32,000 nucleotides of DNA from Opitutales bacterium (GCA_965219535.1 CBDCNV010000002.1:2190001-2222000); one strand, 5' to 3'. Shown: positions 1,051 to 31,776, counted from the stretch's first letter. The notes: generated from the sequence alone by a model not told the origin. Numbers and translations: made by a program.

Positions 1051-1253
1051 TATACCTCAGGGTCAAACGTAGAATTTAAATATACTCTGTAACGGGTCTC
1101 AGTAGTCGATTGATTCATGATGCATGCTGCAGTATTCAGGATGTCATGGGGTAGGGGGTCGGATTGCAGAATGTACGAAACCGACATTCCCCTGGAGTGG
1201 AAGATGTCGCTGCGCTCGGTAGCCACGGCTGACAAGCAGCCTAGCGATGACAA
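1050..1253 (-). pseudogene. Truncated, degenerate copy of the GIY-YIG repeat element (one long arm plus decayed gene relic)
   Basis: The reverse complement from 1253 reads TTGTCATCGCTAGG...GGCTACCGAGCGCAGCGACATCTTCCACTCCAGGGGAATGTCGGTTTCGTAC, which is the same long left-type arm seen in the other copies. The following frame (..SVSYILQSDP...TRYRVYLNSTFD..) weakly recalls the GIY-YIG N-terminus (YVYILTS...TKKY..LVYHESFYD). No second arm is present and the element ends at the IS481 boundary. Confidence 0.5.
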
Positions 1254-4584: not shown

Positions 4585-4835
4585 TTGTCATTGCGAGGAG
4601 CAACACGACGAAGCTACCGAGCGCAGCGACATCTTACACTCCAGGTGAATGTCTGTTGTATGAAGTAGGTCCCTTGGTGTTAGGATTAATTCTCAACCGA
4701 TCGTATACTTAATTTTGAGACGAACCCTCATTGGATAGATTTGAGCGGAAATTGGTTTTCGTAGGCATAATGACTATTTGCCTGGAATGGAAGATGTCGC
4801 TGTGCTCGGTAGCCGCGCTTCGCTCGCAATGACAA
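4585..4835 (+). repeat. Miniature copy (251 bp) of the GIY-YIG element: two long inverted arms around a decayed, internally deleted gene relic
   Basis: The left arm is TTGTCATTGCGAGGAGCAACACGACGAAGCTACCGAGCGCAGCGACATCTTACACTCCAGGTGAATGTC. The right arm, read as reverse complement from 4835, is TTGTCATTGCGAGCGAAGCGCGGCTACCGAGCACAGCGACATCTTCCATTCCAGGCAAATAGTCATT. The interior segment 4730-4787 aligns to 24531-24588, the 3' end of the intact gene plus its right arm. Confidence 0.85.
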
Positions 4836-7484: not shown

Positions 7485-8549
7485 TTATTCCTTATCGTAA
7501 TATTCTCTTTTGAATTTTGTTGTTTCTTTTTCAAAAAATCCGTCTTCACCCTTAATAATAAATAGAGCGGCTTTGCTCTCTCTTTCAGCTAGTTGGTATC
7601 CTTCCTCAGGGCCAAGAACAATAAGGGCCGTAGCCAAAGCGTCTGCCCGCATACAGGAGGAGTCAAGCACCGTAACTGAAGCGAGGCGATGCTGGATGGG
7701 ATAACCTGTTCTAGGATTAATTTCATGTGAGTATCGTTTACTATCTTTTTCAAAATAATTTCTATAATCACCAGAAGTGGCAATAGCCCGGTCATTAAGG
7801 TCAATGACCTTATGAATCTCCTTTTTATCTACGATAGGGCTTTCGATAGCAATTCTCCAGGGTGAATTATCTTTTTTTCTACCCCTGGTCTTCATTTCTC
7901 CTCCTATATCGACAATATAGTTCATAATTCCCTGAGTTTCCAGAAGATTTGCAATTGAATCTACAGCAAATCCTTTAGCTATCCCAGATAAATCAACATA
8001 CAGATCAGCGCGATCTTTCTTAAGCGCAGGGGGGGAGAGGCGTGATTTCAAGTGATGGGAACCTACTTTCTTCAAGGATTCATTTATCTTTTCCGCGCTG
8101 GGGATTTCTTCCTTTCCACCTGGAGGGCCAAACCCCCATAAGTTAACCAGGGGGCCAACCGTGATATCGAACGCGCCTTCAGTTAACTGGTGAATCTCAA
8201 TCCCTTCTGCGACAACCATTGCCGTTTCAAATGAAACAGGAAACCAATCGGTCATAGTGTAGTCATTAAAAAGCGACAGTTCAGAGTCCGAAATATAGGT
8301 GGACATTTGGGCATTGATCTCAATAAGGAGTTTATCGATCTCAGTCTTTAATTTCTCTGCCTCAAGGGAGGAGGAGGGAGAGGCGATGGTAACTCGATAA
8401 TAAGTCCCCATCGTAGAACCCGATAGGGTAAGCGGACGATCATCAGTCGCATTCGATGAAGGTTTACTACAGTGAAAGAGGATTAAGCTAGAGAAAACTA
8501 ATATCCCAATCACAAAAAAGGATTTTTTATTAGCTATGATAAAACCCAT
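7485..8549 (-). CDS. apbE: FAD:protein FMN transferase (ApbE family), lipoprotein-like N-terminus
   Basis: This 354-aa ORF has the ApbE motifs GIAKGFAVD and TSGDYRNYF. It has a hydrophobic leader ending ..ILFHC. It is located between nqrF and nqrM. Confidence 0.9.
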   Translation of the reverse strand: MGFIIANKKSFFVIGILVFSSLILFHCSKPSSNATDDRPLTLSGSTMGTYYRVTIASPSSSLEAEKLKTEIDKLLIEINAQMSTYISDSELSLFNDYTMTDWFPVSFETAMVVAEGIEIHQLTEGAFDITVGPLVNLWGFGPPGGKEEIPSAEKINESLKKVGSHHLKSRLSPPALKKDRADLYVDLSGIAKGFAVDSIANLLETQGIMNYIVDIGGEMKTRGRKKDNSPWRIAIESPIVDKKEIHKVIDLNDRAIATSGDYRNYFEKDSKRYSHEINPRTGYPIQHRLASVTVLDSSCMRADALATALIVLGPEEGYQLAERESKAALFIIKGEDGFFEKETTKFKREYYDKE

Positions 8550-8640
8550 CCGTCGAAAGAAAGTTCCCGGTCACTTTTTATTATATACAATATAATGGAT
8601 ATACGCCGAGTTGGGCCATCGGCTCAAATCCTGTAAAGAA

Positions 8641-9879
8641 CTAACCACCAAAGTCATCGAAGAGGATATTTTCCTCTTCAACTCCGAGGTCAAAGAGCAT
8701 ATTTATGACCGCAGAATTCATCATGGGTGGCCCGCAGATATAAAATTCGCAATCTTCGGGTGCGGGGTGATCTTTAAGGTAATTATCGTAGAGTACCTGG
8801 TGAATGAATCCCGTATAACCTTCCCAATTATCTTCAGGTAAGGGTTCAGATAAAGCAACGTGCCAGGTAAAATTATCGTGTTTTTGCTGGAGCATGTCGT
8901 AGTCCTCAACGTAAAACATTTCCCGCAAACTTCGAGCCCCATACCAGAAGGTAATTTTTCTATTTGAATGTAATCGAGCGAGTTGATCAAAGATATGGGA
9001 GCGCATCGGAGCCATCCCTGCTCCACCACCAACAAATATCATTTCAGCGTCCGTCTCCTTGGCAAAGAATTCACCAAAGGGTCCGGATATCGTGACTTCA
9101 TCTCCGGGTTTAAGATTGTATATATAAGAAGACATCATACCCGGAGGAATTCCCTCGGGTGCACGGGGGGGAGGGGTGGCGATCCGAACATTGAGCATAA
9201 TAATTCCTTTTTCTTCCGGAAAATTAGCCATCGAATAGGCTCTAAACACTTCTTCATCGACTTTTGAAGTAAAGCGCCAAATATTGTGCTGATCCCAGTC
9301 CGGCCTGTATTGTTCGTCGATTACGAAGTCTTTGAAATCTACGACATGGGGTGGACACTCGATCTGGATAAAACCACCTGCGCGAAAATCAACATTTTCT
9401 CCTGCTGGAAGCTCAAGTATAAGTTCCTTAATAAAGGTGGCGACATCATCGTTGGAGCGAACTTTGCATTTCCACTTTTTGACTTCAAATACTTCAGCCG
9501 GGACCTCAATTTTCATATCCTGCTTTACTGCTACCTGGCAGGATAGCCGCATACCTTCGCGCGCATCTTTTTTGGTAATTTGTGAAAGCTCTGTAGAAAG
9601 GATGTCACCCCCACCTTCCATAATTTTTACCGTGCACTGACCACAGGTTCCACCGCCCCCGCAGGCAGAGGAGACAAATATTTTTTCTGTCGCAAGGGCG
9701 TTAAGTAGTTTCCCACCGGCGGGAACGGTGATTGCTTTGTCCGGATCGTCGTTAATGAGAATACTTATATTACCGGCTTGGACGAGCCTCGCCTTGGCCA
9801 TAAGGATGAACACGACTAGAAAAAGGACGACGACAGTAAACATCGTAACGCCTAAAAGGATTTGAAAAATTTCAGACAC
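8641..9879 (-). CDS. nqrF: Na+-translocating NADH:quinone oxidoreductase subunit F
   Basis: The 412-aa product has an N-terminal transmembrane helix, the 2Fe-2S motif [10 protein letters not shown] and the FAD-binding motif RAYSMAN. It has a GTG start. Confidence 0.95.
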
Positions 9880-9907
9880 TGTTATTTCGATCCTATTTGC
9901 TAATCAT

Positions 9908-10519
9908 CTAAAGTTGAATACCCGAAAAGGCCATAAAGGCCAAAGACATCAGTCCAACTATAATAAAGGTGATTCCCAGTCCTTTGAGTCCATCTGGGAT
10001 ATCACTATATTTCAATTTTTCTCGTATCCCCGCTAAACCAGCGATTGCAATAGCCCAGCCGAATCCAGTGCCAAAACCAAAAACGGCACTTTCGGAAAAG
10101 TTATAGTCTCGCTCTACCATAAATAGAGATCCGCCGAGGATGGCACAATTTACGGTAATGAGCGGGAGAAAAATACCCAGGGCATTGTAGAGGGCAGGGA
10201 CATACTTATCTAATATCATTTCCAGAACTTGTATCATCGCTGCGATAACACCGATGTAGGAAATGAATCCGAGAAAGGATAAATCTACGCCATGAATTCC
10301 GGCCCAAACTAAGGCATCTTCTTTGAGAAGATACTGATAGATTAAATTATTCACGGGAATCGTAATTGTCTGAACGACGATCACTGCGATTCCCAAACCA
10401 ATGGCAGTACTGACTTGCTTGGAGACGGCGAGAAAAGTACACATGCCGAGAAAGAAGGCCAGTGCCATATTTTCGACAAAGACCGAAGTGAGAAAGATAC
10501 TAAGGTAGTTTTCAAGCAT
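9908..10519 (-). CDS. nqrE: Na+-NQR subunit E
   Basis: This is a 203-aa polytopic membrane protein in the conserved nqr gene order between nqrD and nqrF. Confidence 0.9.
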
Positions 10520-10524
10520 TGAGA

Positions 10525-11148
10525 TTAAGCTTCTTCAACTTGTTCTTTTTTCCAACATCTCAAAATCCAGATAAAGAGACCAATGATAAAGAATGCGCTG
10601 GGAGGCAGTAGCATCATTCCATTTGAAACATACCAGCCTCCTTCATTAGAGAGGGGTAGGATAATATGTCCGAATAATCGGCCTGAACCAAATAGCTCAC
10701 GAAAGACACCGACTATTATAAGAATCAAACTGTACCCTAATCCATTCCCAATTCCGTCCATGAAACTTAGAAAGACTGACTCTTTCATCGCGAATGCCTC
10801 TGCTCTTCCCATGACGATGCAGTTGGTAATGATTAATCCGACAAAGATTGAGAGTTGTTTGCTGATGTCAAAGGCGTAAGCTTTGAGAATCTGATCAACA
10901 ACGATGACGAGCGAAGCGATAATCGTCATCTGTACGATAATGCGAATACTATTGGGAATATGATTGCGAATAAAGCTGACGCTTGCATTCGATAAGCCCA
11001 AGACACATATCACCGCGATAGACATGACAAATACGGTTTCCAATTTTGTGGTAATTGCCAAAGCGGAGCAAATACCAAGCACTTGAAGACCAATGGGATT
11101 GTTATTAAATAAAGGATCGAGCAGAACTTTTGTCGGTTTACTAGCCAT
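10525..11148 (-). CDS. nqrD: Na+-NQR subunit D
   Basis: This is a 207-aa polytopic membrane protein in the conserved position in the nqr operon. Confidence 0.9.
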
Positions 11149-11151
11149 AAT

Positions 11152-11925
11152 TTATCCTTCAAAGTTGCGTATGTTATTTAAAAAAGGACCGAACCCATTT
11201 TCTCCCAGCCAGTATCGCAGAAGATCCCTGACGCCACGAGATGTAATCGTCGCTCCTGATAAACCATCTACCTGGTATTGAAGATCTGTACTGTTGGGGT
11301 TCACTTTTCCTTTAAGGACTTCTATGCGGGTGTTCCAACTTTCGTCAAACGCTTTTTTCCCAACCCACTGGGCTTTCCAGAGCGGGTTATCCACTTCACC
11401 TCCGAGTCCCGGTGTTTCACCATGTTCATAAAAAGCAAAACCATTAATTGTTGTCATATCAGCATCGAGTGCGAGAAAACCATAGAGCGTAGACCAGAGC
11501 CCCTTACCATGGACGGGGAGAATCAGTTGTTGTAAATCTCCATTTTCATTAGAGGCGATATAAACTAAAGCATATTTAGACCGTCTCTTATTCCCGCCCA
11601 AATCATGATCTTTGGCAATAGCAATACCATATTCATCGCTTTTGGCTGCCTTCCTTTGATCAAAGGTTGCCGCATCAAACGCGTCGCTATATTCACCGGT
11701 GGAAAGATCAACGACGCGCGTGTCGAATTTTGCAAAAAGTTCTTCAATTGATTTCCCTTCTTCCAAGAGACCAGCCGCCATAAGGATGTTCTTTTTCCGG
11801 TCTAAATCTTTATTTCTTACCTGATTAGATTTTAAAAAGACAGCTGCACTGGAGACAATTACAGAGCAGATAATAGAAAGCAGTCCTGCGACAATCAGTG
11901 TTTTTATAATCGTATCGTTACCCAT
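11152..11925 (-). CDS. nqrC: Na+-NQR subunit C (covalent FMN)
   Basis: It has the FMN-attachment motif LSGATITS and a single N-terminal transmembrane helix. The track ORF begins at 11964. I prefer the ATG at 11925, which overlaps the nqrB stop by 8 nt (ATGGGTAA). Confidence 0.9.
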
Positions 11926-13125
11926 AACGCAGCTTTCTTTTTTTAAGGTGCGCATTGACGACAAAATAGTCTATGACGGGAGCAAATACATTACCGAAAA
12001 GAATCGAGAGCATCATCCCTTCTGGAAATGCGGGATTAATGACACGAACAAGAATAACAAGGAATCCTATAAGGAGTCCGTAGATCCATTTCCCTGTATC
12101 GGTCATTGAGGCAGAAACGGGATCGGTTGCCATAAAGACTAAGCCGAAGGCAAATCCACCGAGGACTAAATGCCATGCCGGACTCATATCGAACATCGAG
12201 TTCGTCTCGCTCCCAACCGCATAAAGGAGACTGGACGTTGCGAGAGCGCCAATGAGCACAGCCAACATAATGCGCCAGGACCCTACACCGGTAAAAACAA
12301 GTAAGGCGGCGCCAATCAAACAGGCAAGGGTAGAGGTTTCACCCATGGAACCTTGAATCTGTCCGAGAAAGGCCTGGTTCCAAGTTACGGTTGTGGTGAG
12401 ATCACTCATGCTTTCAGCAGCTACCAGCCCGAGGGGAGTAGCTCCACTGAAACCATCAACGGCAGTCCAGACAAAATCTCCAGACATTTGCGCCGGGTAT
12501 GCGAAAAAGACGAACGCGCGTGCAGTGAGCGCGGGGTTGAGGAAATTCTTTCCGGTACCACCGAAGATTTCTTTTCCAATGACCACTCCGAAGGAAATAC
12601 CGATTGCTACCTGCCATAAGGGAATAGTGGGGGGAAGAGTAAGAGGGAAAAGCAGGCCGGTGACAAGGAAACCTTCATTAACTTCGTGTTTTCTTATACT
12701 CGCAAAAAGCACCTCCCATAATCCACCTGTAATATTGCAAACAAGAAAAACGGGGATGAAGTAAAGGGCTCCATGAATGAGATTCGAAAATATATTCTCG
12801 TGATCATAAGCCAGACCCAGTAACTCCATGACCTGGCCACGCCACCCTGGCGCGGTTACCACACCCATCTCGGCCATCGCAGCATTAGCTTGAAACCCGG
12901 TGTTATACAGTGCCATCACGATACAGGGGGCGAGTGCGATCGCAACGGTGATCATCATGCGCTTTAGATCCATCCCGTCACGGACGTGAGTCATCCCTTT
13001 GTTTACGTGTCCGGGAGAGTAAAGAAATGTATCAATAGCTTCGTAAAGGGGGAAGAGCTTTTCTAATTTACCCCCCTTCGCAAAGTAAGGGTGCAGACTA
13101 TCGAGAGATTTTCGTAAAAACTTCA

Positions 13126-13126
<1 letters not shown>
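11918..13126 (-). CDS. nqrB: Na+-NQR subunit B (covalent FMN)
   Basis: This 402-aa polytopic membrane protein has the SGATPLG motif. Its ATG overlaps the nqrA stop (TAATG). Confidence 0.95.
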
Positions 13127-14478
<1,352 letters not shown>

Positions 14479-14740: not shown

Positions 14741-15013
14741 TTGTCATTGCGAGGGAGGCTATCAGCTGACCGCGGCTACCGAGTCCCGCAACTACGGGAC
14801 GACATCTTCCATTCTAGGCGAATAGTCATTGTGCTTACTCTTACCAGTCACATGGTAAATCTTTCCAATGAAGGTTCGACTTTTAATCAAAACATTACTC
14901 ATCTGAGGATTAACCTTAACATCTGCGGGTCTACATAACGAAACAGACATCCCCCCGAGTGGAAGATGTCGCTGCGCTCGGTAGCTTCGTCGCTTTACTC
15001 CTCGCAATGACAA
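14741..15013 (-). repeat. Miniature copy (273 bp) of the GIY-YIG element, opposite orientation
   Basis: The termini are AATTGTCATTGCGAGG and CCTCGCAATGACAATT. Both arms carry GCTACCGAG...CGACATCTTCCA. The interior is collinear with copies 4585-4835 and 31538-31776 when reverse-complemented. One arm carries a 16-nt hairpin, TCCCGCAACTACGGGA (14784-14799). Confidence 0.85.
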
Positions 15014-15067
15014 TTGTGACGATGACTATGATAACCGTGATCCACCCTTTTTATATTTTCTCTGGAG

Positions 15068-15087
15068 GGCCACGCTCCGTCGTGGCC
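15068..15087. repeat. GC-rich hairpin GGCCACG-CTCCGT-CGTGGCC
   Basis: A 7-bp perfect stem with a 6-nt loop sits inside AT-rich intergenic DNA. The alternative pairing CTCCGT/ACGGAG overlaps it. Confidence 0.5.
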
Positions 15088-15125: not shown

Positions 15126-15337
15126 GACGAAGACGAAGAGTGATTCGATTTATCTCTAATTTAAATCTTTTAATGCAAGGTGGAGCGGGCTGTCCCTAGC
15201 ACGCTTCTTCTATTACGACTAAATCAAACGCGCTAGGGATCAGCCGTCGCCAAGGCTATGTCGGACAGACACCGCGTTCCACCCTGATATTGTATTAATT
15301 AACTGACGAAGACACAGACGTGGACGAAGACGAAGAT
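15126..15337. repeat. Composite intergenic repeat: GACGAAGACGAAGA direct repeats flanking a long imperfect inverted repeat
   Basis: GACGAAGACGAAGA occurs at 15126-15139 and 15323-15336, and GACGAAGAC at 15305-15313. Between them, GGTGGAGCGGGCTGTCCCTAGC (15180-15201) is partly complementary to GCGCTAGGGATCAGCCGTCGCC...GGACAGACACCGCGTTCCACC (15231-15284). Confidence 0.5.
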
Positions 15338-22809: not shown

Positions 22810-24169
22810 TATAATTACTGAAAAACAAACCCTCGAAGAAAGATATCTAAAGCAGATTTTTGTCCGCTCTCAGATGACGGAATTTGTAAAGGACCCTTTC
22901 GTAATGAGTAGTTCAGATGGGGTTTATTATACGGATATTGATGGAAAACGTTACCTTGATGCCATAGCAGGAATTTTTGTCGCTTCGGTTGGCCATAATA
23001 ACCGACGGGTGATTGAAGCGATTAACGACCAGTTGGACAAAATGTCCTTTTCCCCGATCATACACGGCACGAATGCATTAGCTGTTCAATTAGCCAATTT
23101 ACTGGCAGAAATTGCCCCCGGTGATTTAAGCGCGGTCAAATTCTGCTGTGGGGGATCGGAGGCAAACGAAACCGCTTTTAAAATGGCGCGCCAGTATCAT
23201 AAACTTAACGGTAATCCTAACAAGTATAAGGTAATCTCGCGCTACCAGTCCTGGCATGGGTGCACAATGGGGTCCCTGTCCGCGTCCGGACTAACTTCAC
23301 GTCGTGTTGACTCCGAGCCGCTGGCGGCAGGATTTGTTCATGTATTCCCTCCCTATTGCTATCGCTGTCCTTTTGGTAAGGAATACCCCAGTTGTAATAT
23401 CACCTGTGCCGGCTTGATTGAAGATACGATTATGATGGAAGATCCTGAGACCGTCGCCGCGGTCATTGTTGAGCCGATCGGGCATACCGGTGGCATCATT
23501 GATCCTCCCCCTGAATATCTTCCCCAATTACGAGAATTTTGTGACCGACATAACGTGCTTTTGATTTTTGATGAAATTATTACCGGAATGGGGCGCACGG
23601 GAGAAATGTTTGCTGCTGAAACATTCGGAGTGATTCCTGATGTGATTTGCCTGGGCAAGGGTTTATCTGGTGGATACATGCCACTATCCGCGGTGCTATG
23701 TCGAAGACACATTGCGGATAAATTCTGGGGAGATGAGGAGACAAATCCGGGCTTGGTGTCGGGTCATACATATGAAGGTAACCCCATCGCCTGCGCGGCT
23801 GGATTGGCGACGATAGCGGAGATTATCGAAAAGGATTTGTGCGCAAATACCCGTAAAGTGGGCAGCCATTTGCGCGATGGTCTGGAGGGGCTTCGCAAGC
23901 ACGAAATTATCGGCGACATTCGAGGGAAGGGATTGTTTTTTGGTGTCGAGTTTGTTCGTGATCGGGTGACAAAAGAAAAGTTTTCGGATGATATTCCGAT
24001 TGCCACATTAATTGGAAAACGCGCCTTAGAAAAAGGACTCTTGCTACGCTACGATCCTCATTGGTTATCAATCGGCCCCCCTCTAATCCTGACTGAAAGT
24101 CAGGCCGATGATATTGTTTCTATTTTGGATGCTAGTATAACAGAAGTGCTGCAGGAGATTAAAAGCTAG
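22802..24169 (+). CDS. Class-III (omega) PLP-dependent aminotransferase
   Basis: It has GGSEANETAFKMAR, DEIITGMGRTG and LGKGLSGGYMPLSA motifs. The ATG at 22802 overlaps the upstream stop, whereas the track ORF begins at 22790. Confidence 0.85.
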   Translation: MSDIITEKQTLEERYLKQIFVRSQMTEFVKDPFVMSSSDGVYYTDIDGKRYLDAIAGIFVASVGHNNRRVIEAINDQLDKMSFSPIIHGTNALAVQLANLLAEIAPGDLSAVKFCCGGSEANETAFKMARQYHKLNGNPNKYKVISRYQSWHGCTMGSLSASGLTSRRVDSEPLAAGFVHVFPPYCYRCPFGKEYPSCNITCAGLIEDTIMMEDPETVAAVIVEPIGHTGGIIDPPPEYLPQLREFCDRHNVLLIFDEIITGMGRTGEMFAAETFGVIPDVICLGKGLSGGYMPLSAVLCRRHIADKFWGDEETNPGLVSGHTYEGNPIACAAGLATIAEIIEKDLCANTRKVGSHLRDGLEGLRKHEIIGDIRGKGLFFGVEFVRDRVTKEKFSDDIPIATLIGKRALEKGLLLRYDPHWLSIGPPLILTESQADDIVSILDASITEVLQEIKS

Positions 24170-24192
24170 AGTGTAATTGCATCGCGCCCCTA

Positions 24193-24621
24193 TTGTCATT
24201 GCGAGGAGCAACGCGACGCGGCAATCCAGAAATTTTGGATTAACCATTGCCACATATAAACCGATTTAATACATGTGCGCAATGTGTATTACGTTTACAT
24301 CCTCACCAGTAAGCGTAATGGAACACTTTACACTGGTGTCACCTGTAGTTTATTTCGTCGCTTATGGGAACATAAAAATAAATTTAAGGAAGGGTTTACC
24401 AAGAAATACAATATACAAAGGCTGGTATATCACGAATCCTTTTATGATATTCAAAATGCTATCGTACGTGAAAAGCAAATTAAAGCCGGATCGAGAAAAA
24501 AGAAGATTGCTTTAATTGAAGCAGAGAACCCCCATTGGAAAGATCTGAGCGGAGACTGGTATTCGTAAAACAATGACGATTCGCCTGGATTGCTTCGTCG
24601 TGATGCTCCTCGCAATGACAA
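24193..24621 (+). mobile_element. Candidate autonomous GIY-YIG element: a single GIY-YIG gene bounded by about 37-bp terminal inverted repeats
   Basis: The left arm at 24193 is TTGTCATTGCGAGGAGCAACGCGACGCGGCAATCCAG. The reverse complement of the right end, from 24621, is TTGTCATTGCGAGGAGCATCACGACGAAGCAATCCAG, matching at 33 of 37 positions. The same termini bound four other repeat copies in the window. Mobility is inferred, not shown. Confidence 0.6.
24275..24568 (+). CDS. Small GIY-YIG nuclease family protein (COG2827 / UPF0213-like)
   Basis: The 97-aa product reads VYYVYILTSKRNGTLYTGVT (GIY...YIG), then RRLWEHK, FTKKY, LVYHESF and REKQIKAGSRKKKIALIEAENPHWKDL. It has a GTG start. The ORF is intact, unlike the relics in the miniature copies. 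Confidence 0.85.
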   Translation: MRNVYYVYILTSKRNGTLYTGVTCSLFRRLWEHKNKFKEGFTKKYNIQRLVYHESFYDIQNAIVREKQIKAGSRKKKIALIEAENPHWKDLSGDWYS

Positions 24622-24646
24622 ATGGGGAGGCACGTGCCCTCCATTA

Positions 24647-25486
24647 TCAGGTGCGAACAGCATGTCTGAAGAGTGGTTTAGCTATATCTGGAAGACTTTC
24701 AAAAACTTCCAGAGGCATCGGGGGGTATTGGATAACCCTTTGCTTGGGGTCATCATTAACAATTTTCATTTCTGTCGATCCTGGTAGGTATATATTCTGA
24801 TTCATCCACCAGGGCGCGTATCGGGCAACCATGGAGACACGGGACTTATCCGTTTTATTCGCTCCGCCCGCATGCCACATACGACTGTCAAAAGCGAGGA
24901 CGCTACCCGCAGACCCGGTCACCTGTATTTCATCGGGAAAAGGTTCAAAATTTGGTTCTTCACCATAGGAAGGATTTGTATTTCGTTTATGGCTGCGCGG
25001 CACGAGGTGGGTCGCGCCGTTTTCCTCTTTAAAGGGGTCAATCATCCAGATTGTGGTAATGGTCATTAAAATTGTATTAAGGTATGGACTTTCAATATGC
25101 CCCGCATAGTTTCCCGCGAACGGTTGATCCCCATGCCACTCCCTACGATCGCTATGGGGTATATTATTCGTGGTAGAAGTGGCACAAACGCGAAAATGAG
25201 GGCCGAATAAATTTTCTATCAAGGTGGTCATTCGGGTGTCAGCGAGATATTCGGCAAAAGACGGAATATAATTTATGGAAGAAGCGCAATAATTGGTAAT
25301 TCCATCAGTGACTCGAGTGAAAGGTTTGTTTTCGGGTTCACCTTGTCCGATAGTGATTAATTCGTCTCTGATAGGAGCAATACGCTCTTCTGGCACTACA
25401 TCCTCAATTAAACACCACCCCTCATCACGGATCTCTGCTGCCAATGACTCCGTCGATTTTACCGCTTTGGTTTTTGTTTCCATCAC
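24647..25486 (-). CDS. Phytanoyl-CoA dioxygenase (PhyH) family oxygenase
   Basis: This 279-aa ORF has WHGDQP, THLVPRSH and WHAGGAN motifs. Confidence 0.8.
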   Translation of the reverse strand: MMETKTKAVKSTESLAAEIRDEGWCLIEDVVPEERIAPIRDELITIGQGEPENKPFTRVTDGITNYCASSINYIPSFAEYLADTRMTTLIENLFGPHFRVCATSTTNNIPHSDRREWHGDQPFAGNYAGHIESPYLNTILMTITTIWMIDPFKEENGATHLVPRSHKRNTNPSYGEEPNFEPFPDEIQVTGSAGSVLAFDSRMWHAGGANKTDKSRVSMVARYAPWWMNQNIYLPGSTEMKIVNDDPKQRVIQYPPMPLEVFESLPDIAKPLFRHAVRT

Positions 25487-25701: not shown

Positions 25702-25710
25702 GGGTCATGC

Positions 25711-25748
25711 CTAGAATAGACACATATCAGATGTGTAAGCTATTCTAG
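25711..25748 (+). promoter_or_regulatory. Hairpin spanning the left IR and transposase leader
   Basis: The sequence is CTAGAATAG-ACACAT-atcag-ATGTGT-aag-CTATTCTAG, giving 9-bp and 6-bp stems. It ends 4 nt before the ATG at 25753. It may occlude translation initiation on read-through transcripts, but that is inference. Confidence 0.4.
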
Positions 25749-25752
25749 ACAA

Positions 25753-26427
25753 ATGAGAAATAAGTATGTACATCGTTCAAAAATTTCTGAGGCCAAATTT
25801 CGGCAGTTAGTAAAGTGTTTTAGCTTGGATATGGAAGCGTTGAAGATAGCCCAATTGACAGGATTGAATCGTAACACGGTCAACCGTTATTTGCGCTTGT
25901 TGCGGGAGCGTTTGTTGCAGCAATGTGCGCAGGCCTCGCCTTTTAGGGGGTCGGTGGAAATGGATGAGTCCTACTTTGGAGGCAAAAGAATTCCAGGGCA
26001 AAGAGGTCGGGGTGCATTCAAGAAAGTGCCCGTCTTCGGGTTGCTCAAGCGTAATGGGAAAGTCTATACCCAGGTTGTACGCAATGTCTCCAGAGCCGCT
26101 CTGCATGCGGTGATCCAAGGGAGAGTTACTTTTGACAGTGTGCTTTATTCTGACGGGTGGCGTGCTTACAACGGCCTCGTGGATCTGGGCTATAAGAAGC
26201 ATTACCGTGTCAATCACAACGACAACGAGTTTGCCCAGGGACACTCCCACATTAACGGGATTGAATCTTTTTGGGCTTTTGCTAAACTTCGATTGGCTAA
26301 GTTCAAAGGTCTTTCTCGTAGGACCTTCCAACTGCACCTCAAAGAAACTGAATATCGCTTTAACCATCGTCATCAAAACCTCCATCGTAACATCCTTAAT
26401 ATGTGCTTAAGATACCCTCTGTTCTAG
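25753..26427 (+). CDS. IS1595-family (ISXO2-like DDE) transposase
   Basis: The 224-aa product has MDESYFGGKR..GRG..KVPVFGLLKRNGKVYT...LYSDGWRAYNGL...HYRVNH...HINGIESFWAFAKLRLAKFKG. Confidence 0.9.
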   Translation: MRNKYVHRSKISEAKFRQLVKCFSLDMEALKIAQLTGLNRNTVNRYLRLLRERLLQQCAQASPFRGSVEMDESYFGGKRIPGQRGRGAFKKVPVFGLLKRNGKVYTQVVRNVSRAALHAVIQGRVTFDSVLYSDGWRAYNGLVDLGYKKHYRVNHNDNEFAQGHSHINGIESFWAFAKLRLAKFKGLSRRTFQLHLKETEYRFNHRHQNLHRNILNMCLRYPLF

Positions 26428-26436
26428 GCATGACCC

Positions 26437-27102: not shown

Positions 27103-28368
27103 ATGTCATTGAAGAGAGCACCTGAAACCGATTTCGAAAAGGTATCTTCCTATCTGAGGAGACAAGAAGGAAAGTGTGTTAAATTCCTTCAAGGATTAAT
27201 TCAGATTCCAACCGTGAATCCCCCTGGAGACTGCTATAAGCAGTGTGTGTCCTATCTCGATACAAAACTTAAATCGATGGGTATGAAAACCCAGGTCATT
27301 CGTGTCCCAATAAATGAGCAGAAAAAAGTGACACCCCACTTAATGAATTACCCCCGGTATAACTTAATTGGGAGATGGAATACCGGAGCTGCGAAGACAC
27401 TACATTTTAATGCACACTATGATGTGGTTCCTGTCTCGGGTGAATGGAAATATGGACCTTTTGTGCCGAGAGTTAAAGACGAGTGGATTTACGGACGAGG
27501 GACAGCGGACATGAAAGGTGCAATTGCCGCTTGTTGTTTTGCCATTCAAGCGGTGAAGCAATGTAAACAATTACCACGGGTAAATTTAGAAGTGTCTTTC
27601 ACTGCGGATGAAGAAACAGGCGGTGAACTGGGGGCCGGATATATTGTCGAGAAGAAGCTGGTTAATCCCGACTATGCCGTAGTCTGTGAAGGGGGTAGTG
27701 GAAGAACTGTAGGTTGCGGACATAATGGTGTGCTCTGGCTGGAGTCGGTGATTACCGGCAAATCTGCTCACGCCGCGCATCCACATAATGGGATTAACGC
27801 CTTTGAAAAAATGTCGGCTCTGGTAGTCCACTTAAACCGTTGGAAAAAAACTCTGAAAAATCGAAGCTATGTATCACCTAACGGACGTAAAATGCATCCC
27901 ACGATAAATATAGGGGGTGTATTTGATGTCGGATTGGGGGCTAAAGTGAATACCGTTCCATCTCATGCGAGTTTTTCAATCGATAGACGCATTATTCCCA
28001 GCGATTCCTTGCGCGATGGGGAGAGGGAAATAAAAAGAGTGATCAATGAAGCGAGGAGACAAATACCGGATCTGCGTGTAAAAACAGCAAGCCTCTTAGA
28101 AATCAAACCCTGTCTTGTTGATCACAGCAGTTACTTTCCCCAAACATTTTCACGCGTTGTTAGTTCGGTGCTGGGCGGTCGTACTCAATTCAATGTTTGT
28201 GACGGGTTTACCGATATGAATCGCTTTGTGAACAGCAAAATAATAACCGTGGGTTACGGTCCGGGGGGTAAATTAAACCACGGGGTAGATGAGCGGGCAA
28301 AAATTCGCAGCATATTGCAAACAGCCAGGGTATATGCGAAACTGATGCTCTCGCTTGAAGAGAAATAA
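27103..28368 (+). CDS. M20-family metallopeptidase / deacylase (ArgE/DapE-like)
   Basis: This 421-aa ORF has HFNAHYDVVP, GRGTADMKGAIAA and ADEETGG motifs. Confidence 0.85.
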   Translation: MSLKRAPETDFEKVSSYLRRQEGKCVKFLQGLIQIPTVNPPGDCYKQCVSYLDTKLKSMGMKTQVIRVPINEQKKVTPHLMNYPRYNLIGRWNTGAAKTLHFNAHYDVVPVSGEWKYGPFVPRVKDEWIYGRGTADMKGAIAACCFAIQAVKQCKQLPRVNLEVSFTADEETGGELGAGYIVEKKLVNPDYAVVCEGGSGRTVGCGHNGVLWLESVITGKSAHAAHPHNGINAFEKMSALVVHLNRWKKTLKNRSYVSPNGRKMHPTINIGGVFDVGLGAKVNTVPSHASFSIDRRIIPSDSLRDGEREIKRVINEARRQIPDLRVKTASLLEIKPCLVDHSSYFPQTFSRVVSSVLGGRTQFNVCDGFTDMNRFVNSKIITVGYGPGGKLNHGVDERAKIRSILQTARVYAKLMLSLEEK

Positions 28369-28425
28369 TAAATGAAAAGAAGAGTTGAGCGCGGGCGCTT
28401 GTCCGATTAGCTCCGCCTATGAAAT

Positions 28426-29265
28426 TCAATTGCTGAAATCTACGGTCTTCATTAATTCGCGGACATAGCCGTTTGTTACCGAAGCATGGTTATTATCAGC
28501 CGCGTTTATTTCATTTTCGATTGCCTTAAAATCTTCATTGCAGAGTGTATCCAGAGAATCGAGCAAATTATCAAAAGTCTGTTGTATATCAGCTATACTT
28601 GATCCTTCTTGTTGTTGTATGATTTCTCTATAGTAGGATTTTAAATTCAGGCGTGGTATGGTAATTGCATGGTACCGCGTGCCGCGGACGCTGGCACTAT
28701 GTCTCTCCGCAATTGAATTATAAATCTGTTCTTCATCTTGAAGCGCTTCTGCCGCCCTGAAAGCACGATCCATTTCATGCTGAGCGGTATCTGAAAACGT
28801 TTTATTTTTCTGGTCATAATCTGAGGTCATCGTATTGCGGGCGCTTCCGATAAGTCGGCTCAGATTAGCGACTTTGGATTTAACATTATCAAAACTGGAC
28901 TGTATATCTTTATAATTCGCTTTAATGGACTCCGATTCCTGGTACTCCTCATCGGAATCTGATAAAATCATCCCAACTTCCAAATCTATTCGGTCTTTAA
29001 GGTTTTTTGCCTTCGTGATTATTTTCGTTAAAAACCTTTTTTCCTCTCTCAATTGCTTTTTCAGTTCCGCCATCTCTGAATCTTTTCTTTTGCGGGACCC
29101 TAAAAAGCTGAATGTTCGGTCGAGGAAGTTATAGGAATTTTCAATCTCTGTGAGATCGCCGTTTATCTCTTCAAAGAGTTGGACTTGCATCTCTTTCGCC
29201 AGATTAAGCTTATAACGCTCATTGATCAGCGTTTTGACATTATCTGGTACGGTGAGCGTTTCCAT
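28426..29265 (-). CDS. Hypothetical charged, predicted alpha-helical/coiled-coil protein
   Basis: This 279-aa uninterrupted ORF has about 37% GC. It has no transmembrane segment and no motif I recognise. It lies 150 nt downstream of, and co-oriented with, the pseudopilin-like gene 29416-29874. Confidence 0.6.
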   Translation of the reverse strand: METLTVPDNVKTLINERYKLNLAKEMQVQLFEEINGDLTEIENSYNFLDRTFSFLGSRKRKDSEMAELKKQLREEKRFLTKIITKAKNLKDRIDLEVGMILSDSDEEYQESESIKANYKDIQSSFDNVKSKVANLSRLIGSARNTMTSDYDQKNKTFSDTAQHEMDRAFRAAEALQDEEQIYNSIAERHSASVRGTRYHAITIPRLNLKSYYREIIQQQEGSSIADIQQTFDNLLDSLDTLCNEDFKAIENEINAADNNHASVTNGYVRELMKTVDFSN

Positions 29266-29415
29266 TAGTATGAATCTTTAAATGAACCCCTGCACAGAAA
29301 ATTTCGACTGACTGTTATTCTGCGCTTTCCAGCAAAGCTTTATATTTTATAAAATAAACTTAAAAGTGAGGTCAATATTTCTCGTAGCTTAAAATCGTGA
29401 AAAAAGTAGGTTTAC

Positions 29416-29874
29416 TTATTCCAGGGCAAGCTGGTAGTTCATTGCCCCTCTTTTCTGAAAGCGACCTGTAGACAAATCGCCATCATCTATATATTCATCC
29501 ATCTCTATCATGACCGCGAGGTTGGCGTTGGGTTTTTGTAACATTAAAGTCGCTTGGGCTTGCAGCCAAATATACCCACTGCCCTGTCCGCTGCCCATCG
29601 CGTATTTACTCGGCAAATAACCTTCCATTCCAGTGGGAATTTGGTTCAATCCCGCGGTGGGTGGCCATTGGCCATGTTCAGTATTATAGAATTCAAAGGC
29701 ATTGGTGAATTCAACAATATCATTTATCAATACAGTGGATTGAGTTTCTTCGTTGGATTTATTCGTCGCCGGTATTAAAAAAGTTGCGAGAATTCCAATG
29801 ATCACGACAACAACCATGATTTCCACGAGGGTGAAACCTTTTTCCAGGGAGAGACTCTGAGACTTGGCGGTCAT
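29416..29874 (-). CDS. Prepilin-type N-terminal cleavage/methylation domain protein (pseudopilin-like)
   Basis: It has the motifs GFTLVEIMVVVVIIGILA, IPTGMEGYL and DDGDLSTGRF. It is a paralogue of 26475-26951. Confidence 0.85.
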   Translation of the reverse strand: MTAKSQSLSLEKGFTLVEIMVVVVIIGILATFLIPATNKSNEETQSTVLINDIVEFTNAFEFYNTEHGQWPPTAGLNQIPTGMEGYLPSKYAMGSGQGSGYIWLQAQATLMLQKPNANLAVMIEMDEYIDDGDLSTGRFQKRGAMNYQLALE

Positions 29875-31537: not shown

Positions 31538-31776
31538 TTGTCATTGCGAGCGAAGCGAAGCAACCCAGGGGGATGTCGGTTGCGTAAGTAAAGTCTCAGG
31601 GTGTTAGGGTTTACTCTCACTTGAACGTATGCCTAACTTGAACAGATGAACCATCATGGGAAAGACTTGAGTGGTTCCTTTTATTCGAATGCAAAATGAC
31701 AATTCGCCTGGAATGGAAGATGTCGCTGCGCTCGGTAGCCACGTCTCCCGCTGTTGCGGGATCCTCGCAATGACAA
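31538..31776 (+). repeat. Miniature copy (239 bp) of the GIY-YIG element with one short and one long arm
   Basis: The left arm, TTGTCATTGCGAGCGAAGCGAAGCAACCCAGGGGGATGTC, is the short type found beside the intact gene. The right arm, read as reverse complement from 31776, is TTGTCATTGCGAGGATCCCGCAACAGCGGGAGACGTGGCTACCGAGCGCAGCGACATCTTCCATTCCAGGCGAATTGTCATT. The interior TAACTTGAACAGATGAACCATCATGGGAAAGACTTGAGTGG aligns with TAATTGAAGCAGAGAACCCCCATTGGAAAGATCTGAGCGG of the intact gene. Confidence 0.85.

Follow-up and report, generated by a model that had tools for sequence, protein, structure and literature searches.

What is a small, intact nuclease gene doing between two inverted repeats in the genome of an uncultured bacterium, and does the unit formed by the gene and its repeats move? 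The question is raised by a 32,000-nucleotide stretch of DNA from an Opitutales bacterium (GCA_965219535.1, CBDCNV010000002.1:2190001-2222000), referred to as a whole as the window. An initial annotation of this DNA had described a GIY-YIG gene enclosed by inverted ends that also bound four other repeats, and had proposed that it is the autonomous member of a mobile or selfish repeat family. Our analysis indicates that the feature is very probably an Ssn cassette, i.e. an ssn gene lying between two inverted copies of its presumptive recognition repeat. This kind of element is already known (Ssn/SRM, 2025), and the hypothesis that it is selfish is already in print. What is new here is the member from an uncultured Opitutales-type bacterium, an arm subtype missed by the published regular expression, a lineage-specific long-arm variant and a set of gene-less derivatives.

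The Ssn family comprises single-domain GIY-YIG proteins of ~94 aa (CDD cd10448; Chenal et al., Nat Commun 2025, PMC11893778). Ssn proteins recognise an oriented hairpin repeat, which they bind solely in its single-stranded DNA (ssDNA) form, and their cut falls a few nucleotides upstream; the repeat is named NTS in Neisseria (CGTCATTCCCGCGMAVGCGGGAATCYRG) and SRM in general, and ssn genes typically have it on both flanks (PMC11893778). According to the same study, mutagenesis found three elements to be critical, namely the palindrome, the 3 nt preceding it and the C that directly follows, the reverse strand of the motif is not cut by SsnA, the motif co-varies with the protein, and the function of SsnA in N. 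meningitidis is the modulation of transformation. Its Discussion calls the NTS-ssnA-NTS layout 'identical to' that of insertion sequences (IS), draws the analogy with REP and IS200-IS605, and leaves the mobility of these units open. Our literature search did not find a later paper on Ssn mobility. The premise of the initial annotation that no bacterial IS family is known to use a small stand-alone GIY-YIG protein is hence outdated by Ssn/NTS (PMC11893778), while its cassette anatomy and its RAYT/REP analogy are correct, the latter having already been drawn in that paper.

The gene and its setting

The ssn gene (24275..24568, + strand) encodes a 97-aa protein with one GIY-YIG domain (Pfam PF01541, residues 5-77, E=5.5e-11) and no other domain in the Pfam scan, which confirms the intact gene described initially. 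Its start codon is GTG and is kept in relatives. Compared with the gonococcal SsnA orthologue, the protein has 48% identity over 88 aa, with a BLASTP E-value of 4e-29 as against the E<1e-10 by which Chenal et al. 2025 define Ssn homology (PMC11893778). The SsnA reference used here is a 94-aa N. gonorrhoeae ORF, the sole match in one chromosome of the NZ_CP119140.1 / NZ_CP119142.1 set. It is surrounded by 16 NTS copies within 3.2 kb, and we therefore take it to be the gonococcal SsnA orthologue. Both accessions (L088) are 2.17-Mb N. gonorrhoeae chromosomes filed in PLSDB as plasmids, and several Sinorhizobium, Aeromonas and Shinella replicons of 3.5-4.9 Mb are likewise found in the plasmid collection. 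As far as the alignment goes, Y8, Y19, R29 and E66 of the window protein are identical in the gonococcal protein, where they correspond to the catalytic residues, i.e. the Tyr of GIY, the Tyr of YIG, the Arg and the metal-binding Glu of REKQ. The window gene is under purifying selection, its dN/dS being 0.13-0.18.

We searched other collections with the window protein. NCBIfam has no model of the Ssn family, and its only match was a sub-threshold one to TIGR01453 (group I intron endonuclease) with a score of 16 bits, the cut-off being 56. PADLOC and PHROGs scans returned zero matches, so the protein has no tie to a known defence or phage family in them. The PDB sequence search retrieved only a distant relative, the UPF0213 protein 1zg2 (E=3.8e-5), and no structure of SsnA. 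No recognised transposase (DDE, HUH, Ser or Tyr) was detected in the cassette by the Pfam and NCBIfam scans, which give only GIY-YIG there, and the Pfam scan of the protein itself gives no HUH/Y1 match.

The gene is intergenic and lies between convergent Aminotran_3 (class-III aminotransferase) and PhyH genes, a setting that had been described initially and is confirmed by our Pfam scan. The 97-aa ORF had also been called the only one between 24193 and 24621, which does not hold: several unannotated ORFs of 54-80 aa overlap the cassette region, and the 97-aa ORF alone has a family match.

The arms and their association with ssn genes

The 5'-side arm (24193..24229, + strand; TTGTCATTGCGAGGAGCAACGCGACGCGGCAATCCAG) ends 45 nt upstream of the start codon, and the 3'-side arm (24585..24621, minus strand; TTGTCATTGCGAGGAGCATCACGACGAAGCAATCCAG on that strand) begins 16 nt downstream of the stop codon. 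The two 37-nt arms are inverted copies that pair at 33/37 positions, as reported before, and the pairing does extend outward past them, reaching 38/45 with the outer flanks. Both carry an SRM-type motif with GTC directly 5' of the palindrome and C directly 3' of it (GTC-ATTGC...GCAAT-C), so that the positions found critical in the mutagenesis of SsnA, i.e. GTC, palindrome and C, are precisely those invariant in the window arms. The 5'-side arm also shares GTCATT...AATCCAG with the Neisseria NTS (CGTCATTCCCGCG..GCGGGAATCYRG), and GTCATT and AATCCAG are common to both arms and the NTS. In all likelihood the arms represent an SRM subtype of the form GTC-ATTGC-(variable apical part)-GCAAT-C. The 14-mer core of the motif, TTGTCATTGCGAGG, occurs 9 times in the window with <=2 mismatches; the mean in dinucleotide shuffles is 0.28, and 0/100 shuffles reached 9. 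In the window the motif is confined to cassette-derived units, with no dispersed solo hairpins beside host genes.

We also found a conserved inner half-site (CCAGGCGAATcGTCATTG / CCAGGCGAATnGTCATTG) at 24571..24588 on the minus strand, inside the 3'-side arm by 5 nt and abutting the stop codon. It is found in every copy keeping the 3'-side arm (window, L083, L093 and L002), its further positions in the window being 4768-4785, 14814-14831 and 31694-31711. With the half-site beside it, the 3'-side arm is bracketed by direct CAATGAC repeats. The half-site may be a truncated tandem SRM.

Each arm had been called hairpin-prone. The claim is weak for the window copy, whose stem has only 5 bp (ATTGC/GCAAT) and whose two arms, folded as ssDNA, do no better than shuffled sequence (z = -0.79 and +0.69); the NTS gave z = -2.57 by the same comparison. 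Support for a hairpin comes from the family level only, where the stems covary. Four parts can be told apart in the motif of 208 unique units from other genomes, i.e. the conserved GTC, the outer stem of 5 bp, the small internal loop and the apical stem. The outer stem is present in the MFE structure of 135/208 units and has compensatory ATCGC/GCGAT variants, and the apical stems vary by locus yet remain paired, e.g. GTCCCGAT/ATCGGGAC and CCCTGC/GCAGGG. The commonest 26- and 32-nt forms of the motif contain GCGAAGC, an unusually stable DNA mini-hairpin whose stability is underestimated by nearest-neighbour energy rules. The covarying stems thus argue for an arm hairpin in the family, and the case for the window copy is weak.

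The published SRM regular expression, HGTCWYN(0-2)YYVSBRHN(0-5)WNVSBRGN(0-2)RNCYNB, has 0 matches in the window and in the loci L083, L093, L020 and L056. In the positive controls, the Neisseria locus gave 9 sites and a Rhizobium locus 6, and the negative outcome in the window and the related loci is therefore real. Among the points that run counter to our identification of the cassette are that the window arms fold like shuffled sequence and that they fail the published expression. Regarding other functions of such palindromes, the whole window has zero Rfam matches at gathering thresholds, the promoter/terminator scan found no terminator-like sites in 24100-24700, and promoter-like matches in that interval are no commoner than in shuffles.

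The association between gene and arms holds far beyond the window. One scan of species-representative genomes gave 80 loci with 55-81% protein identity, from Verrucomicrobiota, Cyanobacteria, Chloroflexota, Bacteroidota, Pseudomonadota, Patescibacteria and other groups. The initial annotation held that its reading would fail if homologues elsewhere were never flanked by the arms, and we observed the GTCATTGCGAG...GCAATC motif (<=1 mismatch in GTCATTGCGAG) within 300 nt of the gene in 77/79 homologue copies with usable flanks, and on both sides of it in 68/79. The density of the motif is 7.26 per kb in the flanks vs 0.154 per kb elsewhere in the same loci, and motif arrays in both orientations are common around the homologues. 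We retrieved 290 flanking units using GTCATTGCGAG (<=1 mismatch) followed by GC[A/G]ATC, so the critical positions are present in these units by construction. In two unrelated MAGs the whole gene-plus-arms unit is tandemly duplicated (L012 10001-10684 and L031 9565-10873).

A Rhizobium homologue has a different, perfectly NTS-like hairpin, CGTCATCCCAGGGCTTGACCCTGGGATCC, inverted on its two sides, indicating that the motif co-varies with the protein, in line with PMC11893778. For the empty-site comparison at this locus, the Rhizobium plasmid relatives are only ~84% identical and match in the neighbouring peptidase gene only. Overall, GTCATTGCGAG...GAAGCAATC is the most widespread arm subtype that we found, being present in many phyla, and the published SRM pattern is blind to it. 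The published counts of Ssn-repeat association are therefore probably underestimates.

Gene-less copies and turnover among relatives

Four other repeats in the window had been reported to share the arms. Arm pairs are indeed found at 4585..4835 (+ strand), 14741..15013 (minus strand) and 31538..31776 (+ strand), and a truncated remnant with only a long 3'-side arm lies at 1160..1253 (+ strand), adjoining the gene at 1283-2881. It is the nature of these repeats, and of their mostly long arms, that has to be revised. In each of them the 3'-side arm and the inner half-site CCAGGCGAATnGTCATTG are retained together with traces of the last ~15 codons, and all four are internally deleted cassettes, not independent repeats. 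In the long-armed copy at 4585..4835, for example, the remnant translates as ETNPHWIDLSGNWFS up to the stop codon, to be compared with AENPHWKDLSGDWYS at the end of the intact gene.

Most arms of the gene-less copies are of a long variant, with the GCAAT half interrupted by an insert of ~23 nt (TACCGAGCGCAGCGACATCTTCC). In our sample of loci this long-arm module is restricted to the Opitutales relatives, and intact genes of the L083 genome also have it as their 5'-side arm. Having no GCAATC half, the long arms of the gene-less copies may not be substrates. We also observed ~160-bp 'arms-only' elements, in which two long arms stand back to back and nothing of the gene is left (L090 14485-14651 and L093 1822-1978).

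The gene-less copies differ in their distribution among the nearest genomes, which are Opitutales MAGs. Two of them, at 31538 and ~1200, also occur in relatives and are hence older: the first has a colinear copy at L093 3265-3492, and at the position equivalent to the 1160-1253 remnant, i.e. downstream of the homologue of gene 1283-2881, there are arm-bearing elements in L090 (17207-17441) and L093 (1822-1978). The 4585 copy has no colinear relative there for an empty-site comparison. The 14741 copy is found in the window lineage only. It is absent from L093 (flanks 96%/91% identical), L089 (93%), L090 and L091, and the homology breaks between 14738 and 14739, which is 3 nt outside TTGTCA. The right junction is not clean because the target region itself is full of other small repeats. 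By this comparison, the 14741 copy is a recent gain of an element that was already without its gene.

A REP-like palindrome, GGAGGGCCACGCTCCGTCGTGGCC, recurs in intergenic regions of the Opitutales relatives (window 15064-15087; L083 5767 and 6479; L093 2109, 19548 and 19566); it adjoins the 14741 insertion and muddies its right junction. Another small intergenic repeat family, starting GGTGGAGCGGGCTGTCCCTAGCACGCT, is common to these genomes and often lies beside Ssn cassettes (window 15179-15205; L083 6383; L093 19433; L089 5016 and 5090). The complete nqrA-F operon (Na+-translocating NADH:quinone reductase) with apbE, at window 7485-14475, is a synteny anchor.

The initial annotation held that its mobile reading would fail if all relatives carried the cassette at the same locus with no empty or polymorphic sites. 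Taken with the arm association elsewhere, the outcome is mixed and leans towards that reading. All three lineages examined have the intact cassette at the aminotransferase-PhyH site, and an empty site for it was found in none of them; polymorphism was seen as an inversion with discordant divergence in the closest relative, a second copy and the 14741 insertion. The cassette has the same orientation as in the window in L083, whose flanks are ~80% identical to the window, and is inverted relative to the flanks in L087/L093, where they are 91-96% identical. Between the window and its closest relative, L093, the dS of the GIY-YIG gene is 0.74, resting on only 97 codons, and that of four flanking genes is 0.07-0.23. 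The two ssn genes have 48 differences in 294 nt, about twice the flank-based expectation by our own estimate. The pattern is the reverse between the window and L083, with dS of 0.37-1.26 in the flanks and 0.49 in the gene, so that the gene tree is star-like and that of the flanks is not. These contrasts argue that the cassette at the aminotransferase-PhyH site was replaced or re-inserted, and not simply inherited.

L083 has a second copy of the cassette at a distance of 3.2 kb, inverted and with 99.7% identity to the other one. The two agree from TTGTCA to TGACAA+GAG, up to 3 nt outside the arms, and their outer flanks are unrelated. The counterpart of this second site in the window, 28368-29435, does not align. 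Within the otherwise identical L083 units there is a local hypervariable spot, a 6-nt apical patch of the 5'-side arm that differs at 5/6 positions (L083 5903-5908 vs 9987-9992 on the reverse strand; TAATAC vs CATCGT). A truncated form of the second Ssn cassette is found in one strain variant of the L083 species (L084 9085-9285 onwards), and an IS3-family element (HTH_Tnp_1 and rve ORFs) directly downstream of the truncation is probably its cause.

No target-site duplication was found at any junction inspected. As a control in the same comparison, the IS1595-family insertion of the window has a duplication of the textbook kind (8 bp, TTGATTAT), and L093 has the site uninterrupted. This insertion spans 25702-26436, with a 224-aa DDE_Tnp_IS1595 ORF at 25753-26427 and inverted repeats GGGTCATGCCTAGAA.

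Our comparisons show the arm-to-arm unit (plus <=3 nt) behaving as a discrete module, which close relatives have gained, duplicated, inverted or replaced. The comparative evidence that the unit moves is circumstantial, yet it is specific enough for testing. The mobile or selfish family proposed initially is thus supported in part, being in keeping with the turnover across relatives; the missing target-site duplication speaks against it, and the only activity known for the enzyme family is that of a hydrolytic ssDNA endonuclease.

Possible mechanism and place among known systems

By homology with SsnA, the protein is predicted to bind the motif only in ssDNA and in one orientation, and to cut a few nucleotides 5' of GTC on the substrate strand 5'-GTCATTGC...GCAATC-3'. 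With inverted arms, each strand would receive a single cut, so that either end of the cassette would have one immediately beyond it. The boundaries of the unit seen in our comparisons lie 3 nt beyond TTGTCA and within the approximate zone of SsnA cutting. Our preferred inference is that the turnover would be started by Ssn nicks and completed by host repair. Ssn would nick DNA that is transiently single-stranded during replication or transformation, and the nick would then be repaired by host recombination or template switching, with arms elsewhere used as homology. Since one arm is the inverted repeat of the other, the donor could be copied either way round, and this would explain both the in-place inversion or replacement and the missing target-site duplication.

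We speculate that Ssn cassettes might be a new class of prokaryotic mobile element, copied to new sites or, at occupied ones, swapped in either orientation, a suggestion that we make only tentatively. Its mechanistic part, in which Ssn nicks start the process, host repair finishes it with no target-site duplication and the gene-less units are mobilised in trans, is put forward with the same reserve. If the suggestion is true, the boundary 3 nt outside the arm, set against the SsnA cutting zone, would be a mechanistic signature.

A more conventional explanation, and the one to which the initial annotation comes closest, is an autonomous classical IS, in which the GIY-YIG protein would act as a transposase in excision and integration of the unit, with the gene-less copies as its MITEs mobilised in trans. 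We regard it as possible but doubtful. The terminal inverted repeats, the several copies and the internally deleted derivatives all agree with an IS, as do the gene-less copy gained since the split from relatives with 91-96% identical flanks, the duplicated unit that ends at the arms and the joint spread of gene and arms across phyla. However, the junctions have no target-site duplication, whereas the neighbouring IS1595 shows its 8-bp one. GIY-YIG enzymes are hydrolytic nucleases, and we know of no strand-transfer chemistry for them. SsnA moreover cuts one strand only, so a single strand would have one cleavable end, which is not IS200-like excision, and three lineages have the intact copy fixed at the same locus. 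A classical cut-and-paste role for Ssn is less likely because the enzymes are hydrolytic and SsnA spares the reverse strand.

The conservation of that locus in three lineages could instead reflect a host-domesticated, immobile gene, coding for a nuclease of ssDNA restriction or transformation control as in Neisseria, with the other copies being old decayed duplicates. The function demonstrated in N. meningitidis, the purifying selection on the ssn gene and the two gene-less copies common to relatives are in accord with domestication, which we nevertheless find rather unlikely, and so is its corollary that deletions and ordinary recombination account for the differences among genomes. Four relatives at two divergence depths have no 14741 copy, for which a gain needs one event and a loss several; the dS of the cassette is 3-10x that of the flanks, and there is an inversion in addition; the near-identical second copy in L083 ends exactly at the arms; and the motif of the window occurs only within cassette-derived units, not as solo hairpins beside host genes. 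A free-standing GIY-YIG homing endonuclease, or arms serving as bidirectional terminators or regulatory palindromes unrelated to the ORF, could be suggested by the GIY-YIG domain, the intergenic position between convergent genes and the weak match to TIGR01453. This is highly improbable and is effectively refuted by the TIGR01453 score, which is far below its cut-off, by the 77/79 arm association and by the terminator scan. The protein is a single 97-aa domain with no DNA-binding extension, promoter-like matches are at shuffled frequency, no Rfam family matches, and the arms travel with the gene across phyla.

Among known systems, the small stand-alone GIY-YIG domain is shared with the UPF0213/YhbQ proteins (PDB 1zg2, BH0048), the sole solved relative, which is far more distant from the window protein than SsnA is; to our knowledge no arm repeats are associated with UPF0213/YhbQ proteins. 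The GIY-YIG homing endonucleases (I-TevI and the free-standing Seg proteins) have the same domain and a selfish-element flavour, but the window protein differs from them in having no DNA-binding domain, no intron or target gene and, as predicted by homology, activity on ssDNA only. The gene-less units resemble MITEs, e.g. the Correia elements of Neisseria, in their size (~160-275 bp), terminal inverted repeats, intergenic location, origin by deletion and variable presence between relatives; unlike MITEs, they have no target-site duplication and their parent element has no known transposase.

The REP/RAYT systems (Y1/HUH, related to IS200/IS605) have a similar layout, with one small nuclease gene between inverted hairpin repeats that the protein recognises as ssDNA, with repeats dispersed intergenically and with an ambiguous status between selfish and domesticated. 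The difference lies in the enzyme, a GIY-YIG hydrolytic nuclease here and an HUH tyrosine transesterase there. If Ssn nicking drives the turnover, a GIY-YIG ssDNA nuclease would underlie a process resembling transposition, and we know of no described bacterial IS family that works by GIY-YIG ssDNA nicking. The window and its sister genomes offer testable cases on Ssn mobility, i.e. a gained gene-less copy, a duplicated unit and an inverted or replaced cassette.

The closest system is Ssn/NTS-SRM, with which the window shares a GIY-YIG protein of one domain and ~94-97 aa, its identity to the gonococcal SsnA orthologue being 48%, and inverted copies of an oriented motif that starts with GTCATT, ends with AATCCAG and is repeated nearby. 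The window arm has a 5-bp outer stem, a small internal loop and a variable apex, whereas the NTS is a perfect 8-9-bp hairpin, and it fails the published SRM expression. The long-arm variant with its ~23-nt insert occurs only in Opitutales relatives in the sampled loci. The host is an uncultured Opitutales-type verrucomicrobium, and the repeated unit in the window is the whole cassette, mostly gene-less, and not a set of solo hairpins in the hundreds.
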